DNA of 6,421 nucleotides from UHGV virus genome UHGV-0398751. The stretch is one strand, 5' to 3'. The number at the start of each line of letters is the position of its first letter. Position 1 is the stretch's first letter. Positions 1 through 6,421 of this stretch are shown here, piece by piece. This DNA is from a virus. Position numbers and translations under genes: made by a program. The notes beneath the pieces are model-generated. The model was not told where the DNA came from. It worked only from the letters and a program-made list of their open reading frames with translations, and ran no database searches.

Positions 1-752
1 AAAAGATCCCGAGTAGAGGGGTTAATAACCATCAAAGGTTTACCAGAAGCATCATAAGCGACAAAACGACAGCCATTATAAAAAGCAGTACGGACGTTAT
101 CCGAATCAAAGGACAAAGGAAAGGAGACTTTATCAACTGCTTTAGTTAAAGAAGGTCTAAGAGTGTCAACATAACGAAATGAAGAGACAGAGGGTGCCGG
201 ATCAGAACCAGCAAGTTCATCAGCTGTTTTAGTAAAAAGCAAGTTTTCATAAGCCGAAAGGGTAAGTCTGCCAGGCATCAAGGTAGTATTACATTGACTT
301 GTCTTGTCTCCAGTATACCAATCCCAAGTAGAAGTAATAGTATTACCAAAATTACCAACCAAAGTAGTAGGAATACCAAGATAGTCCATTAACTGACCGG
401 TCTTCAACATTTTATCAATAATCGTCTGACTGTTGAAATCATGATAAGGTTCTTCAAGACCTGTACGGAAATTTCCTATAAAATCCTTGTAATCTTTCCA
501 AAGAGCACGAAGAGGATAGCGGAAGTAAGCAATACTAGCACGCATGCGTGTTTGTATAGGAAACACCATAGGCATAAGCTGTAATGCCGGAATAGGTTTA
601 GCGCGAAAAGACGTTTTCGCAGGGACTAGTTCACACTGAATAGGTGTAATACGACCTATTTGCGTCGTTAAGTTGTTAACATGTGTCCAATCGAATGTAT
701 TTTGTTTTACATTATTATCGGGTTCTAAGGTTGCATCCCAAATATTTGCCAT
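1..752 (-). CDS. VP1: Major capsid protein VP1 (F-like), N-terminal 250 codons. ATG at 752..750; the frame stays open to position 1 and continues at the window 3' end, since the genome is circular.
   Basis: Manual minus-strand translation has no in-frame stop from 752 to 1. It gives MANIWDATLEPDNNVKQNTFDWTHVNNLTTQIGRITPIQCELVPAKTSFRAKPIPALQLMPMVFPIQTRMRASIAYFRYPLRALWKDYKDFIGNF... This matches the conserved Microviridae VP1/F N-terminal pattern (FDLSH-like FDWTH, GxLxPI, PxxxxxP, RxLW..W.DF). The partial codon at positions 2-1 plus the complement of 6421 gives TTG, which is in frame with the minus ORF ending at 4954. Confidence 0.9.
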   Translation of the reverse strand, partial: MANIWDATLEPDNNVKQNTFDWTHVNNLTTQIGRITPIQCELVPAKTSFRAKPIPALQLMPMVFPIQTRMRASIAYFRYPLRALWKDYKDFIGNFRTGLEEPYHDFNSQTIIDKMLKTGQLMDYLGIPTTLVGNFGNTITSTWDWYTGDKTSQCNTTLMPGRLTLSAYENLLFTKTADELAGSDPAPSVSSFRYVDTLRPSLTKAVDKVSFPLSFDSDNVRTAFYNGCRFVAYDASGKPLMVINPSTRDL

Positions 753-753
753 A

Positions 754-948
754 TTATTTATATTTAATGTTTATACTGGTGCTATCAGCACGTAATGTTG
801 AACTCTGTTCAGTGTTCTGAGAACTACCTGAATTATTCTTAAAGATAGACATACTAGCAGTGCAGCTATCCAAGAAAAGTACAGCGGCTACAGAAACAAT
901 CGCTGTAGCTACAATTTTTACAATCTCATAAATCTGTTCCTTTTTCAT
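754..948 (-). CDS. Small secreted, membrane or lipoprotein-like protein (64 aa). Its stop at 754..756 lies one nucleotide from the VP1 ATG.
   Basis: MKKEQIYEIVK then an 18-residue hydrophobic core IVKIVATAIVSVAAVLFL then DSC (lipobox-like L-x-S-C; TAS also resembles a signal peptidase I site), followed by a polar Ser/Thr/Asn/Gln-rich tail. Same strand as, and tightly coupled to, VP1. Confidence 0.45.
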   Translation of the reverse strand: MKKEQIYEIVKIVATAIVSVAAVLFLDSCTASMSIFKNNSGSSQNTEQSSTLRADSTSINIKYK

Positions 949-1153
949 CCTTTAAGGGGGAATAAGTAGGGTTAACAATCTCTTCAAACGAAGCAAGAAC
1001 AATAAAATCCGGATTATTATCCGAAATAGAAGAACGAATATTCTCAAGCTGAGATGGTCTTCGAAGTTCACCAATATTAATAACGAGTAACGGCTGGAGT
1101 GTTTCACGTGAAACAATTTCCAAAGATCCATAAAGTTTAGTTGGTTTTTCCAT
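926..1153 (-). CDS. Hypothetical acidic small protein (75 aa). It overlaps the start of the 64-aa ORF by 23 nt.
   Basis: ORF on the coding strand of a compact genome, with no obvious motif. Net acidic (about 12 D/E against 8 K/R). It could be a scaffold-like or other accessory protein, but I do not recognise it. Confidence 0.35.
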   Translation of the reverse strand: MEKPTKLYGSLEIVSRETLQPLLVINIGELRRPSQLENIRSSISDNNPDFIVLASFEEIVNPTYSPLKDEKGTDL

Positions 1154-1565: not shown

Positions 1566-2954
1566 TTACAATATTTCTTTTTCATATGCAAGTTTTATGC
1601 TCTGAATTATGTTATAATTAACATCATTTAAAGATAGCTGTTCTTTTGAAGCAAATCTACGTTTAAGAGAAAGCTCTCTTTTTTCAAGCAATTCAGAACG
1701 GACAGAAATATACGATGCGTCATAGGTTACCAATGATAAGAAACGAACATAATAGTCTAATTCTAACTCAATAGCGAGATTACGTTTGTAAATACGATTA
1801 TAATAACGAGAATCAGGGTTAAGTATTTCGGGCTTGCAATAAGTTTGTACTTTTAAAAACCAGAACTTTTTGTAGATTTCTTTTTCGAGTTTTGAGATCT
1901 TTGGCTGAAGGGGCTCTCCAAGCAACTTATTTAATTGATATTCATTTTGGATACGTTCGGAAATAAGGAGTGTAAACTTTTTAAATGCATCACGGGTAGG
2001 TTTATCTAATACAGCGGAATTACTGGGATAATACAATCGTTTAAAATACGACGGGAGAAACACAGTTTCAGTCTTACCGGAAAATGGATCTGTAACAGAT
2101 ATATCCAAACAATCAGGGTGCTTCATATAAAAATCTTTACAATCACGGGCATAACGAGCACCGAGACCTCCATTTTTACGAGAGGATAAAAAGAATACAG
2201 GACGACATCCTTCAGGAACAGCAGGTTCTTTTCTCATGTATTTCATGACATAGGAAATAACACCTTTATCGCAGGGTTTTACAAGACAGAAGCCAAGAGA
2301 GTCGGTAACAGGCGTACCGTCGGAAAGATATTCTCCAGTAGGCACACGCCAGCAGCGCTCAATAAAATGTAACACAGCAGTAATATTCGGAAAATGTTCA
2401 GAAGGAAATGACCATAGTATGGCATGATAATGAGGACGACCAGACTTATGACCATATTCACCAACAGCAAAATAACGAATGTTCGAAGAATCAATACCTT
2501 TGCGAGTCAAGCTCATACGAAGACGCTTCATGAATAATTGGAATTCTTCTTTAAATACACCATGCTTGGGTAAATGCCTAGGATTGTATGTACATGTAAC
2601 AAACAGAGGCTGAGAGGTAGAATACACATTCTCACAAATGGCACGGAATGACCATTCACGTTTTTTCTTATCACGACAGAGATTACACTTGCCGCAGGGA
2701 ACGACCATAAACATAGGTATAATTTCACCATCAAACGTAGGTATATAGAATTCATCTACATTATCAATAGTTACACCTAAGCGACGACAAGAGTACTTAT
2801 ATTTGGGAAAATAGTAACGATATGCTGCAGCAACATCTTTATCGATAAACACCATACCATTAGGAGTATGATAACGCTTGTATAGAGACAAATTGTAAGC
2901 AAGAGTATGAGCCTGTATAATAACAGGATTAAGGCAAAATATATCTTTATTCAT
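1566..2954 (-). CDS. VP4: Replication initiation protein VP4 (462 aa), a rolling-circle HUH endonuclease (phiX174 gene A-like).
   Basis: Has the three RCR motifs: LFVTCTY (motif 1), GRPHYHAILW (HUH motif 2) and VISYVMKYMRK (Y..K catalytic motif 3). Also a CxxC zinc finger, VVPCGKCNLCRDKKKREW, upstream of motif 1. Confidence 0.93.
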   Translation of the reverse strand: MNKDIFCLNPVIIQAHTLAYNLSLYKRYHTPNGMVFIDKDVAAAYRYYFPKYKYSCRRLGVTIDNVDEFYIPTFDGEIIPMFMVVPCGKCNLCRDKKKREWSFRAICENVYSTSQPLFVTCTYNPRHLPKHGVFKEEFQLFMKRLRMSLTRKGIDSSNIRYFAVGEYGHKSGRPHYHAILWSFPSEHFPNITAVLHFIERCWRVPTGEYLSDGTPVTDSLGFCLVKPCDKGVISYVMKYMRKEPAVPEGCRPVFFLSSRKNGGLGARYARDCKDFYMKHPDCLDISVTDPFSGKTETVFLPSYFKRLYYPSNSAVLDKPTRDAFKKFTLLISERIQNEYQLNKLLGEPLQPKISKLEKEIYKKFWFLKVQTYCKPEILNPDSRYYNRIYKRNLAIELELDYYVRFLSLVTYDASYISVRSELLEKRELSLKRRFASKEQLSLNDVNYNIIQSIKLAYEKEIL

Positions 2955-3082: not shown

Positions 3083-3110
3083 GTAAAAAGGCGCCCGAAC
3101 AGGGGCGCCA
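3083..3110 (-). terminator. Rho-independent terminator directly after the VP2 stop.
   Basis: On the minus strand: TAA(3116..3114) GTAATTCT GGCGCCC-CTGTTC-GGGCGCC TTTTTACGATTT. It has a 7-bp all-G/C stem (3090..3096 / 3103..3109), a 6-nt loop and a T5 run (complement of the A run at 3085..3089). Confidence 0.6.
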
Positions 3111-3113
3111 GAA

Positions 3114-4283
3114 TTACCTACGTAGACCTTTAACGCCTATAGGCTTGGGTAATCCAATTCCTGTGCCGGAAATGAACGAACCAGCAGAGCCGATCACACC
3201 GGAGACGGAATCTACTATACCTGTAACAAGGTTAACACCTCTTTCAAGGTTTTTAAACGTCTTGTCAGAATCAAGGTTAAACGCGGCTTGGTCACCTTGT
3301 ATATTAATAAGGCGGTCGAGCTTCCCGTACATGCTAGTGCGGGCACGCATCTCTTCTCTGGAAGTGTATTGGGTCTTAACACCTGCTGACTTAAGAGCAG
3401 TATCTGCATTAATATTCAATACAGTAGCGGAACGGGTAGCCAAATATGTAGCAGCTTGCTCGTAATTAAGGCGAATAGTGGAATTATTGACACGCACTTG
3501 TTCCTGAAATTCTGCCACACGCTGACGAAATTCCTTCGAACGCATCATCATACCAAAACGTGTAGCTGCGGTATTCGCATTAATATTTCTGATGTTAGCT
3601 TTAACTTCATCCGCTTTCTTGTATAGCAAATCAGTATTGGCAGCAGCCTCAGTTATACGGGCAGAGGCTAGCTCAGCCTCTTTATGATTCAACTTTCCAA
3701 TAGAATGATTTACATAAATGGTAGAGCGTCCAATCTCCAAAGCTTGCTCATTCTGTGCAGCACGGGTAAGAGCATCAGCAGAGAGAATTTTACCTTCAAT
3801 CTTAAGGTTTTCAGTTTCTTGCCTTGTCTTACCTTTATCAGCCTCTAGTTTCCGAATCTGTGCAGCTACAAGAGATTGACTTACAACGTTGTTAGTGATG
3901 TCTCCAATCGTAGCTTTCTGTCCAATAGCGGAAACATCCGTAGGCGTAGCAGGAGCAACAGGAGTGACAGAAGGGGAAGAAGAAGCAGTGTTTTGAGCAT
4001 TACCACCATAGAACAAATCAGCATTAACACCTGCGTCACGAAGACGTTGGCGCATAGCTTCAGGGCTATTGTATTGGTTTTCTCTGTTCCATTGGTCAAT
4101 ACTCCATTGGTTTGCTTGCTCTGCCATAGCCTTGTTAAATACTCTTGATCTCTCATTTTCTTCACGTTGAAAAGCTATTTGCTTATCAATATTGGCGTTC
4201 TGTTGTTTATTACCAACAACATTACCAAGAAGAGAAGCTCCGCCACTAAGGACAGAGCCAAGAAATTTACTGAAAAATCCCAT
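3114..4283 (-). CDS. VP2: Minor capsid / DNA pilot protein VP2 (389 aa, H-like).
   Basis: Gly-rich hydrophobic N-terminus (MGFFSKFLGSVLSGGASLLGNVVG). Conserved Microviridae VP2 block ...FNKAMAEQANQWSIDQWNRENQYNSPEAMRQRLRDAGVNADLFYGG (the F.E.M...A.QR...AG.NP.L pattern). Long Ala/Gln/Glu-rich coiled-coil middle and a Gly-rich C-terminus. Located immediately after VP1 and the small ORF, as in other microviruses. Confidence 0.85.
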   Translation of the reverse strand: MGFFSKFLGSVLSGGASLLGNVVGNKQQNANIDKQIAFQREENERSRVFNKAMAEQANQWSIDQWNRENQYNSPEAMRQRLRDAGVNADLFYGGNAQNTASSSPSVTPVAPATPTDVSAIGQKATIGDITNNVVSQSLVAAQIRKLEADKGKTRQETENLKIEGKILSADALTRAAQNEQALEIGRSTIYVNHSIGKLNHKEAELASARITEAAANTDLLYKKADEVKANIRNINANTAATRFGMMMRSKEFRQRVAEFQEQVRVNNSTIRLNYEQAATYLATRSATVLNINADTALKSAGVKTQYTSREEMRARTSMYGKLDRLINIQGDQAAFNLDSDKTFKNLERGVNLVTGIVDSVSGVIGSAGSFISGTGIGLPKPIGVKGLRR

Positions 4284-4598: not shown

Positions 4599-4953
4599 AA
4601 TCTTTTGTTTTTAATTGTTTATTTTTATTTGGGCGTTACGGCTAAAGCCGTCGGGCTTTCTGCGGTACACGGTACTGCTGTCAGTCCCTAACGCACGCAA
4701 CAAAGTTGCTATCTTTGTCCGGTATACACCGGAGAGAATCTTTTCACTTTTAATCTTACGAAACTGCAAAGATAAGGTAGAACGCTCGAAATGTCCAATG
4801 AACCTTGCACTAAAAATGATTAAATACGCGCACACGCAAGCGCGCGCACGCATTTAACAATTTTTACTACAAGAACCCTTGGTCATATCGCTCGTTCTGC
4901 TTGTGAAAGCAGTGTCGGAAGAAAAAAAGAAAAAACATTCTCTTTTTCACCAA
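4599..4953 (-). promoter_or_regulatory. Largest non-coding region (355 nt) between the VP1 stop and the next gene. It is hairpin-rich and locally GC-rich. Candidate promoter and ssDNA replication-origin or primosome-assembly-like region.
   Basis: No credible ORF on the coding strand. Hairpins at 4638..4651 (ACGGC-TAAA-GCCGT), 4700..4718 (ACAAAG-7nt-CTTTGT), 4719..4732 (CCGGT-ATAC-ACCGG) and 4897..4912 (CTGCTT-GTGA-AAGCAG). Quasi-palindrome TTAAAT-[CG/CA alternating 26 nt]-ATTTAA at 4820..4857. CACGCAA occurs at 4694..4700 and 4833..4839. The ATG of ORF 4287..4598 follows an A/T-rich leader typical of Bacteroidetes. Confidence 0.5.
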
Positions 4954-6421
4954 TTAGTCAAGACGCGGTATTGCGACACGAGCGACAGGAAGTTTCACGG
5001 TGCAATCAATTAAAATCTGTCCGTAAACTTTATCCGTAACATCTGTAACACTGAATACATCTGTAACCTGATCAGGGTCTATCGTTAAGAAGCCTTGGGA
5101 AAGTTCCGGCTTTTTATCAAACACTCGATGCATTAAGAAGTTAGACAAATCAGTACGGAATAAGCCATGCGCCTGATCATAGCGCTGACAGTATTCATAC
5201 CACGGTCTTTGATAACCAAAGGTTTCCGTCAATGAATTAGGATCAGCATTATACGCCTGAATTGGACATACTTCCTTATAAGTAATTGGCTGGAATGATA
5301 TATTATTAAACTCAGGGTTGAAGTGATCTAAAAGTCCACGATACAAGAAATGTTTCGGCAATAATTGAGTATAAACAGGCAACGGAGTAATTACCAATAG
5401 ACCCATAATAATACTTTCTTCATCACAGAAGCACTCAATGTTAGCATCAGAACCTCCACGGAAATAACCTATACCTGCTTGCGAGCCAAGGACATCTTTG
5501 TAAGCACCTTCACCTTCAGCAGTTTGATCTACGGTTTGAGAAATAGCATTCATATTAATATCACGAGAGAAGCCTCCGAAGAATTCAGGTAACAGCAAAT
5601 CAGCGTAACGTACTTTAATATCGAAACGACCCTCAATGATTTCTTTATACGAGTAACCTTTACGCATGTTAAGCTCTAGGAATTTCTGGTAGGCGTTTAC
5701 ATTACGTAAATCAGTAATAGAGATACCACTAGTTACCAAATCAAAAAGTGTACGCGCGGAACGGACGGTTGTACCATTATCGAGCTCTACATATTTAACA
5801 CCTTTCAACTCGTCCTTGTCAGATTCAAATTCAAGAGAATAACGTTTTCCATCTTCGTCAACCATAGCTACTTTTGTCTGCTGCGTTAATGTCGGGTTAC
5901 CTTGTTCGTCGTAAACTCTAGTAACCTGATCATAAGTGGTGATACCTACAAGAGGCGCATTGCCTTGCTGTGGTGATTGAACGGAAGTCGTAAGAAAGTC
6001 TTTTTCCCAGTTGGCATAACGTAACTCATAAGGATATGTATCAGCTCCACCTTCATAAGTCGGGATCCATTGATTATATTGAACAACACCATCGATATAA
6101 TATGGATTATTACGATTGTCACGATAAATGGAATTATAAATACCTTCGTAAGCACGGGCAGCGTAGGCAGAGAGCTTGATTTGTTTATCCTTATTAGCCG
6201 AGTTCGAATTATAATACGGAGAATTCGATATAGAAAGTTCGGCAATATTAGGATTGACTTCCATATAAGAAACACTGCCTAAGGTACCTAAAAACAAACC
6301 ATTAGAACCAAGAGGAGACGAAAAATTAGATGCCTGAATAGACGGGAAATATAAGCGTAACTTAGCCATCCTGCTAACTACATCAGAAGTAAGAACAAGT
6401 GTAGCTTGGTTACTAGACAGC
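4954..6421 (-). CDS. VP1: Major capsid protein VP1, C-terminal 488 codons plus TAA stop at 4954..4956. The frame is open upstream of the listed ATG (6369) to the window edge, so this is the continuation of the 752..1 segment.
   Basis: ORF track shows a 471-aa protein. The 17 codons upstream (6420..6370: LSSNQATLVLTSDVVSR) have no stop. The frame joins the 5' segment if the window is circularised, giving about 739 aa in total. The size and composition fit the large VP1 of Bacteroidetes-associated microviruses. Confidence 0.88.
   Translation of the reverse strand, partial: LSSNQATLVLTSDVVSRMAKLRLYFPSIQASNFSSPLGSNGLFLGTLGSVSYMEVNPNIAELSISNSPYYNSNSANKDKQIKLSAYAARAYEGIYNSIYRDNRNNPYYIDGVVQYNQWIPTYEGGADTYPYELRYANWEKDFLTTSVQSPQQGNAPLVGITTYDQVTRVYDEQGNPTLTQQTKVAMVDEDGKRYSLEFESDKDELKGVKYVELDNGTTVRSARTLFDLVTSGISITDLRNVNAYQKFLELNMRKGYSYKEIIEGRFDIKVRYADLLLPEFFGGFSRDINMNAISQTVDQTAEGEGAYKDVLGSQAGIGYFRGGSDANIECFCDEESIIMGLLVITPLPVYTQLLPKHFLYRGLLDHFNPEFNNISFQPITYKEVCPIQAYNADPNSLTETFGYQRPWYEYCQRYDQAHGLFRTDLSNFLMHRVFDKKPELSQGFLTIDPDQVTDVFSVTDVTDKVYGQILIDCTVKLPVARVAIPRLD

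Follow-up and report, generated by a model that had tools for sequence, protein, structure and literature searches.

What is the role of the 64-amino-acid open reading frame (ORF) that ends a single base before the major capsid gene VP1 in the virus genome UHGV-0398751? The whole stretch of DNA analysed here, 6,421 nt and hereafter called the window, comprises the full genome of a microvirus in circularly permuted form, with the VP1 ORF crossing the junction of the stretch ends. An earlier note on this DNA had described the ORF at 754-948 as a lipoprotein-like small membrane protein and as a candidate lysis or exclusion factor, and both the ORF and the distance of 1 nt between its stop and the VP1 ATG were found as described there. 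From a comparison of related sequences, we consider it an even call that the lipoprotein acts as a single-gene lysis factor in Bacteroides, in place of a phage-encoded cell-wall hydrolase.

The precursor of 64 amino acids, MKKEQIYEIVKIVATAIVSVAAVLFLDSCTASMSIFKNNSGSSQNTEQSSTLRADSTSINIKYK, reads in the order MKKEQIYEIVK, IVATAIVSVAAVLFL, DSC and TASMSIFKNNSGSSQNTEQSSTLRADSTSINIKYK, the last part being a polar tail that extends 35 residues past the Cys. The gene and the parts of its product are located as follows.

948..754, minus strand: lipoprotein precursor gene, 64 codons and the stop codon TAA
948..916, minus strand: n-region MKKEQIYEIVK, net charge +1, with Y7-K11 invariant in 42 close homologues
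915..871, minus strand: h-region IVATAIVSVAAVLFL, 15 uncharged residues I12-L26, Kyte-Doolittle 15-residue mean up to 2.28
873..862, minus strand: lipobox-like L-D-S-C, C29 being the predicted lipidated +1 residue
864..757, minus strand: predicted mature lipopeptide of 36 amino acids, CTASMSIFKNNSGSSQNTEQSSTLRADSTSINIKYK, rich in Ser/Thr/Asn/Gln
786..778, minus strand: D55-S56-T57, which fits the O-glycosylation sequon D-[ST]-[AILVMT]

The n-region is positively charged (K2 and K3 in the window protein; all full-length homologues listed have K or R among residues 1-7), and the spacing is that of a lipoprotein precursor, with an uncharged core of 15 residues (rule 7-22) and Cys at position 29 (rule 15-35; 29-35 in relatives). 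The hydrophobic core had been put at 18 residues in the earlier note, but a stretch of that length takes in K11. The mature N-terminus of the window protein reads CTASMSIFK, no hydrophobic segment is found at the C-terminus, and this is the sole small ORF of the window with a membrane-targeting segment. AlphaFold2 predicted one helix over residues 3-39 (mean pLDDT 85-95 over residues 1-30) and a disordered tail, with pLDDT <50 from residue 44. According to this model, which is uninformative as to the processing of the precursor, the window protein appears to have no globular domain.

The ORF is a real gene under purifying selection, conserved as a protein. A word-indexed search returned 81 protein clusters at ≥77% identity to the window protein, nearly all of 63-64 amino acids and one of 76, and the family profile retrieved 3,231 clusters (90% identity). 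HMMER, run exhaustively against 1.84 billion representatives, yielded 112 clusters at the 50% identity level; these were small proteins of 37-125 amino acids, and the sole long match, of 1,403 amino acids and made up of eight short stretches, was taken as spurious. Where their length permits judgement, the contigs with family members reach about 6 kb. The dN/dS ratio calculated from 51 distinct gene copies was about 0.25 overall, 0.28 in the signal part and 0.23 in the mature part, with synonymous sites near saturation; the closest pair, the window and its relative L006, differs by 7 synonymous and 1 non-synonymous changes. Conservation at the level of DNA, for instance of a promoter or an origin overlapping the ORF, is ruled out by this synonymous excess (7 vs 1). 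Mimicry of the N-terminus of a host lipoprotein was likewise rejected, since the HMMER search, examined for long bacterial homologues, gave small proteins and the one spurious match.

No described family appears to be related to this one. Searches of Pfam, PHROGs, NCBIfam, PADLOC and PDB sequences with both the protein and the family profile gave nothing significant: the window protein matched no Pfam family at E≤0.1, including Lysis_col (PF02402), it showed no sequence similarity to PDB chains, and the best PHROG was an insignificant match to a 'Sie-like' family (E=0.09). The best matches outside the family were weak (E = 0.01-0.08) and fell on the signal-plus-tether regions of unrelated lipoproteins. 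Members are named 'hypothetical protein' in GenBank, the one of Dulem virus 245 bears the automatic UniRef name 'Lipoprotein', and no description of the lipoprotein family was found in the literature. Small proteins, about 65 amino acids on average and mostly of unknown function, are reported to link microviral families (Kirchberger et al.).

No homologue whose motif region was read lacks the Cys, which is likewise invariant in all alignments; in the large majority of members a small residue (S or A) precedes it. All 81 proteins of the window clade have FLDSC (80 parsed by script, the 81st read directly). We took as the lipobox rule PROSITE PS00013, {DERK}(6)-[LIVMFWSTAG](2)-[LIVMFYSTAGCQ]-[AGS]-C, to which 38 of the 46 distinct relatives from the fetched loci conform with motifs such as LSTAC, FVQSC and LTSAC. 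Among 65 distant full-length representatives, 36 conform to it and 57 do so under a relaxed rule; position -2 alternates between Q, E and D across the family. The mature part of the family follows C-T-x-S-[LM]-S-[VI]-x-K-x-N...Q.TEQ...D-S-T-x-I-N. In the most distant members the signal is short and of a generic lipoprotein type, e.g. MDKFVLFLSVLLLSSC and MKKRINYVVLSLVAIIAASC, and the mature motif is retained in the form C-T-x-x-[LIV]-x-[IV]-x-K-x-N-[ST]..S...-E-[QN]...-D-S-[TAI]-x-[IV]. Because these members have exchanged the signal and kept both the Cys and the mature motif, the family shows the pattern that would be expected of a cleaved lipoprotein whose mature peptide is the functional part.

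Two further features concern the probable location of this peptide. The tripeptide D-[ST]-[AILVMT] is the general O-glycosylation sequon of Bacteroidota, used in the exported part of proteins (PMC8550257, PMC12871550), and it was found as D-S-[T/I/A/V] in 80 of 80 parsed proteins of the window clade (of 81) and in 58 of the 65 distant representatives, several of the seven exceptions having aberrant or truncated C-termini. Surface exposure of lipoproteins needs a lipoprotein export signal (LES), namely acidic residues at about +3/+4 after the Cys, as in C-S-(D/E)2 or K-(D/E)2 (PMC6222051, PMC5080379). None of the 65 full-length representatives has an acidic residue at +2 to +5, nor does the window protein, and as the acidic surface-export motif is missing the lipopeptide is predicted to face the periplasm. 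Taken together, the invariant Cys, the canonical lipobox of most relatives, the short signals of distant members and the kept sequon make the lipoprotein-like reading stronger than it was when the earlier note put it forward.

The argument for lysis comes from genomes that lack the gene. The cultivated B. fragilis microvirus phiHBP1 (L030) is without the lipoprotein gene; between its Rep and VP1 genes lies that of an M15 peptidase (Pfam Peptidase_M15_3) (PMC13064476). Such peptidases of microviruses have been proposed as endolysins or lysis genes (Roux et al., Kirchberger et al.; PMC3394797, PMC9239249), a proposal overlooked where the earlier note denies alpavirus-type microviruses any known lysis gene, and their homologues are annotated as endolysins in Bacteroides siphophages such as B124-14. 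We gathered genomes in three ways, by VP1, by the peptidase and by the lipoprotein, and scored them with profile HMMs. Among about 100 complete genomes, 81 had the lipoprotein only and 18 a hydrolase only; none had both, none had neither, and 1 truncated contig was left unscored. The subset retrieved by VP1 gave the same picture (lipoprotein only in 35, hydrolase only in 5, both in 0, neither in 0, and 1 truncated contig unscored). The hydrolase was an M15_3 peptidase in 17 of the 18 genomes and an endolysin-like protein in L073. Three genomes that had seemed to possess neither gene were resolved: L052 and L053 encode divergent lipoproteins with a lipobox, the CT.. motif and a D-S-[LT] sequon, and L073 has a 146-amino-acid ORF at 1493-1933, between VP2 and Rep, which matches phrog_873 'endolysin' (E=3e-25) and the endolysin of PDB entry 7q47. 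By its sequence, the L073 protein appears to be a second, unrelated type of hydrolase acquired in this virus group.

On a VP1 tree, obtained by neighbour-joining from a quick alignment, parsimony required at least 4 changes of state between lipoprotein and hydrolase. Genes of both kinds use the same two slots, from Rep to VP1 and from VP2 to Rep, and in window-like genomes such as PQ006733, PQ007270 and MG945169 the peptidase lies exactly in the position of the window's lipoprotein gene. The two thus share their slots and their presumed task and represent alternative phyletic states, but the M15_3 peptidases are enzymes of about 130-160 amino acids that came from bacteria or tailed phages (PMC3394797), unrelated to the lipoprotein in sequence and mechanism. 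In 78 genomes with the lipoprotein gene, none of the remaining accessory ORFs showed a lysin-like domain. Nor was such a domain found in the genes of the window, which leaves a genome without a detectable muralytic enzyme, as in single-gene-lysis phages. Given the strict complementarity, the switches and the shared slots, the simplest reading is that lipoprotein and hydrolase would supply the same indispensable function, namely host lysis. Of the two roles named in the earlier note, lysis is therefore favoured by the complementarity with hydrolases, the shared slots and the lack of another lysin, and exclusion is neither supported nor excluded by these data.

The position of the gene in the window is best seen together with its neighbours. 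All credible genes of the window lie on the minus strand.

2954..1566, minus strand: replication initiator Rep/VP4
4283..3114, minus strand: pilot protein VP2
752..750 (ATG), minus strand: major capsid protein VP1 of 739 amino acids, with its 5' part in 1..752 and the remainder in 6421..4954, matched by Pfam Phage_F and phrog_514
1153..926, minus strand: 75-amino-acid ORF upstream of the lipoprotein gene, no family match

One base (753) separates the TAA of the lipoprotein gene (756..754) from the VP1 ATG. The gene is not fused to the front of the capsid gene, as the earlier note had it, but is a separate ORF in another frame that is merely adjacent. Directly 3' of the VP2 stop, at 3109..3090 on the minus strand, lies a strong intrinsic-terminator-like site, GGCGCCC...GGGCGCC followed by T5, a sign that VP2 and a 103-amino-acid ORF may be transcribed apart from a unit made up of Rep, the small ORFs, the lipoprotein gene and VP1.

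Adjacency to VP1, from which co-expression had been argued, turned out not to be a property of the family. Of 77 complete genomes with the lipoprotein gene, 42 have VP1 as the next large gene downstream and 34 have Rep, and Rep is abutted as tightly as VP1: the lipoprotein gene comes within 13 nt of VP1 in 19 genomes and within 1 nt of Rep in 11. In Dulem virus 245 and many IMG/VR genomes it lies between VP2 and Rep. Related microviruses do conserve the family widely, but not its place before VP1, and a VP1 leader or coupling device is ruled out by the genomes in which Rep comes next. Similarity of the lipoproteins is nearly uncoupled from that of the capsids (Spearman 0.14); at the extremes, VP1 proteins only 28% identical accompany lipoproteins 82% identical, and VP1 proteins 61-64% identical accompany lipoproteins of only 46-54% identity. 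With two genomic slots and a similarity almost independent of the capsid, the lipoprotein gene appears to behave as a self-contained cassette moved between deep microvirus lineages. Such movement is unexpected, as this group has been reported to recombine rarely across families (PMC9239249), and the family provides a case of cassette exchange between microvirus lineages with capsids only about 25% identical. The uncoupling from VP1 would fit a module aimed at a conserved host target.

In one genome (L017, 271-3000; IMGVR_UViG_3300029371_000047) the lipoprotein ORF runs in frame into VP1, a fusion that is either an assembly or sequencing error or a natural variant.

A VP1-based search of GTDB genomes returned three relatives, all from Bacteroides (one integrated prophage and two contigs of metagenome-assembled genomes), and all of them carry the lipoprotein gene. 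The prophage (L034) lies inside a 3.7-Mb contig of Bacteroides sp. f07 (NZ_BAABXI010000001.1), at about 7000-13550, and is apparently complete; a gyrA-like gene and an unidentified 404-amino-acid ORF flank it on one side and host genes on the other. The point of opening lies between Rep and the small ORFs, which places the lipoprotein gene near the left prophage end, co-oriented with the upstream host gene. Free, virulent-looking genomes carry the lipoprotein gene as consistently as prophages do. By its large VP1, gene order and Bacteroides relatives, the virus is an Alpavirinae-type microvirus of Bacteroidales (PMC3091885, PMC3394797, PMC9239249), and its host is, judging from these relatives, a Bacteroides.

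From these results, a mechanism of lysis may be proposed. The 64-amino-acid precursor would be made together with other phage genes, in the window from the Rep-to-VP1 transcription unit, and exported by means of its N-terminal signal sequence. Cys29 would be lipidated, after which signal peptidase II would probably cleave the precursor, and Ser56 would probably be O-glycosylated. Since the acidic surface-export motif is missing, the product would be retained on the periplasmic side of the envelope, where the conserved lipopeptide of 34-38 residues would engage a conserved component of the host envelope. It might then block a periplasmic or membrane step of peptidoglycan synthesis, following the 'protein antibiotic' logic of E, LysM and A2; it might unleash a host autolysin; or it might destabilise the envelope in the manner of the colicin lysis lipoproteins. 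In each case the cell would open and the virions escape. We infer export, lipidation, cleavage, glycosylation, location, lysis function and target alike from sequence. As a matter of speculation, the alternation of polar and hydrophobic residues after the Cys (T-x-S-L-S-V-x-K) might allow the peptide to add as a strand to a partner protein.

A broader form of this proposal, which we hold more tentatively, is that the family represents a new class of phage lysis proteins: a peptide of about 35 residues, anchored by lipid and probably O-glycosylated, that would kill Bacteroides from the periplasm via a conserved envelope target and would be the main lysis system of Alpavirinae-type gut microviruses, exchanged as a cassette among deep lineages and interchangeable with acquired endolysins.

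Several observations weigh against a lytic role. We know of no phage single-gene lysis protein that is a lipoprotein, and it is hard to see how a periplasmic lipopeptide of 36 residues would open gaps in the peptidoglycan wide enough for a 25-nm particle. The role of M15 peptidases in the lysis of microviruses is itself a proposal, and the complementarity rests on few inferred switches, about 4, placed on a roughly built neighbour-joining tree, and on a sample that was partly retrieved via the very genes compared. Prophages carry the gene intact and, if it served lysis, would need some mechanism to keep it silent. Moreover, the window sequence ...VLFLDSC departs from PS00013 at position -2 (Asp), which makes processing uncertain in this lineage.

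The alternative that survives best, although we regard it as unlikely, is a superinfection-exclusion or receptor-masking lipoprotein similar to Llp of phage T5 or to the Cor family. Llp of T5 acts on the periplasmic side. The window protein would reside in the inner leaflet of the outer membrane and attach, from the periplasm, to a SusC-like TonB-dependent transporter or some other receptor, and infected or lysogenic cells and debris would no longer adsorb virions of the same kind. Like Llp and Cor, it is a small phage lipoprotein without the surface-export motif and predicted to face the periplasm (PMC6222051); in the window lineage its gene adjoins that of the capsid, which carries the receptor-binding surface, and in integrated Bacteroides prophages it is intact and lies at the prophage end beside host genes. 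The resistance of B. fragilis to phiHBP1 correlates with susC/susD phase variation and loss of adsorption (PMC13064476), and the insignificant 'Sie-like' match (E=0.09) points in the same direction. Exclusion, however, gives no reason for the strict complementarity with hydrolases or for the total lack of genomes with neither gene. A protein that blocks the receptor would be expected to vary together with the one that binds it, whereas the lipoprotein does not track VP1 and has Rep as the next large gene in 34 of the 77 genomes. The protein also matches neither PADLOC models nor any PDB chain and shows no sequence or profile similarity to Llp or Cor (Pfam, PHROGs, PADLOC, PDB sequences), and its tail is predicted to be disordered whereas Llp has a folded domain of about 60 residues.

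A second alternative places the activity in the N-terminal helix of an unprocessed membrane peptide, holin-like or similar to E and LysM, in the cytoplasmic membrane, with the Cys and the tail being secondary; we consider it distinctly improbable. In the window clade the helix is as invariant as the tail, the dN/dS of the signal part (0.28) is remarkably low by the standard of signal peptides, L-D-S-C makes a poor lipobox and AlphaFold2 predicts a single long helix over residues 3-39. Yet the distant members replace the N-terminus by a generic signal and keep the Cys and the mature motif, so that the conserved and presumably functional part is the tail; the Cys itself is invariant, and the residue preceding it is small in most members. 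The N-terminus of the lipoprotein also resembles single-helix ORFs of 26-29 amino acids that directly follow M15 genes, and this likeness was at first favoured as evidence for an active helix. It was down-weighted because the distant members keep the tail and not the N-terminus; it is also weak, as E = 4e-4 to 5e-3 was obtained with a small database and hydrophobic sequences.

These mini-ORFs, e.g. MTKNKWYEVAKAIITFLGALAGALLGS, adjoin the M15 genes of L191 (6040-6126), L192 (1881-1964), L195 (4860-4940) and L197 (30-119), and in L191 and L192 their start overlaps the stop of the peptidase (ATGA). Those of L192, L195 and L197 account for the HMM matches to the N-terminal third of the lipoprotein, and that of L191 gave no match at E≤1. 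They could be holin-like partners of the peptidase or remnants of a displaced lipoprotein gene. In the phiHBP1 clade (L030, L075, L077, L081, L082 and L083), a conserved ORF of 29 amino acids, MKLNFSVLKKVILLIHDIVTFLLQRKKNN, lies between the M15 gene and VP1; in L030 and L077, the genomes for which both were listed, it overlaps an ORF of 71-84 amino acids in another frame, and either could be the real gene.

Least probable of all is an accessory, moron-like envelope protein that would serve neither lysis nor exclusion, for example by modulating the outer membrane and its vesicles or by a lysogenic conversion that benefits the host: its carriage by prophages in Bacteroides genomes, its cassette-like movement between distant microvirus lineages and its lack of homology to any known functional family would suit such a role, but 35 of the 41 VP1-sampled complete genomes carry the gene within a 6-kb genome that has almost no spare capacity, lineages without it have a replacement and not a simple loss, and virulent-looking free genomes carry it as consistently as prophages.

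If the protein is indeed a lysis factor, its closest counterparts in design are the colicin lysis proteins, or bacteriocin release proteins (BRPs). These are made as lipoprotein precursors of about 45-65 amino acids, with mature products of about 28-36 residues that are rich in Ser/Thr/Gln and have no globular domain. They share with the window protein, as predicted, a tiny precursor, a signal peptide, a Cys in a lipobox or lipobox-like motif and a short polar mature lipopeptide, and in both cases failure of the envelope is presumed to stem from one gene. BRPs are encoded by plasmid genes of Enterobacteria, act via the outer-membrane phospholipase A and bring about quasi-lysis for the release of proteins. 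No sequence relationship connects them with the window protein which, unlike them, is encoded by a gene of a Bacteroides virus, contains an O-glycosylation sequon and would release 25-nm particles.

The single-gene lysis (Sgl) proteins of phages, such as E of phiX174, LysM (Sgl-M) of phage M, L of MS2 and A2 of Qbeta, resemble it in being small and membrane-targeted and the sole lysis candidates of tiny genomes without a muralytic enzyme, and lineages that acquire an endolysin do without them. E and LysM are N-terminal transmembrane peptides of the cytoplasmic membrane with the targets MraY and MurJ (10.1101/2023.10.16.562596, PMC12506998). E is overprinted within another gene, whereas the window gene stands alone and has a lipobox-like motif; the conserved part of the window family is the predicted periplasmic tail, and the family is far better conserved than Sgl genes usually are. 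By this analogy, the lipoprotein would join the single-gene lysis proteins while resembling the colicin lysis lipoproteins in its design.

Spanins such as lambda Rz1, an outer-membrane subunit, and T1 gp11, a unimolecular spanin, are likewise very small lysis-related phage lipoproteins, the mature Rz1 having about 40 residues. They act after an endolysin and need either an i-spanin partner or a C-terminal transmembrane segment (PMC6139136). In contrast, the 6.4-kb window genome has no endolysin, partner gene or second membrane protein, its lipoprotein has no C-terminal hydrophobic segment, and the lipoprotein is missing precisely from those genomes that have an endolysin.

Some features of the window concern the surroundings of the gene. 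The end of the 75-amino-acid ORF and the start of the lipoprotein gene share 23 nt; this ORF is kept in window-like relatives, where a cluster of 19 homologues has the common motif RPSQ.E..R.S...NNP.F, and it is a possible companion gene. A scan for sigma-70 promoters was at the level of chance in the window (20 found, 18 expected), and the Bacteroides -33/-7 promoter pattern gave a single match, on the wrong strand. In the 355-nt spacer downstream of VP1 (4953..4599), a perfect GC-rich hairpin with an 18-bp stem lies at 4858..4819 on the minus strand and is followed by more GC-rich hairpins; the 65-nt segment around it has a folding energy of about -35 kcal/mol, the rest of the genome being AT-rich. 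L006 has exactly the same hairpin, and the Bacteroides prophage L034 retains it with both arms altered. Possible roles are those of a terminator or of a replication or packaging signal; it may also be tied to the dif-like integration sites described for such prophages.

Except for phiX174, host lysis by microviruses has long lacked an explanation, and the Alpavirinae-type are among the commonest human gut phages. The present analysis narrows the problem to one gene of 195 nt, the strongest candidate so far, for which the complementarity with endolysins provides a comparative argument. Should exclusion prove to be its function instead, it would be the first such factor described for any microvirus. 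If the lytic role is true, the family would provide the first single-gene lysis protein of lipoprotein type from a phage, its target would mark a conserved weakness open to exploitation, a new vulnerable step of the Bacteroidales envelope, and the peptide might be used to lyse or manipulate Bacteroidales.

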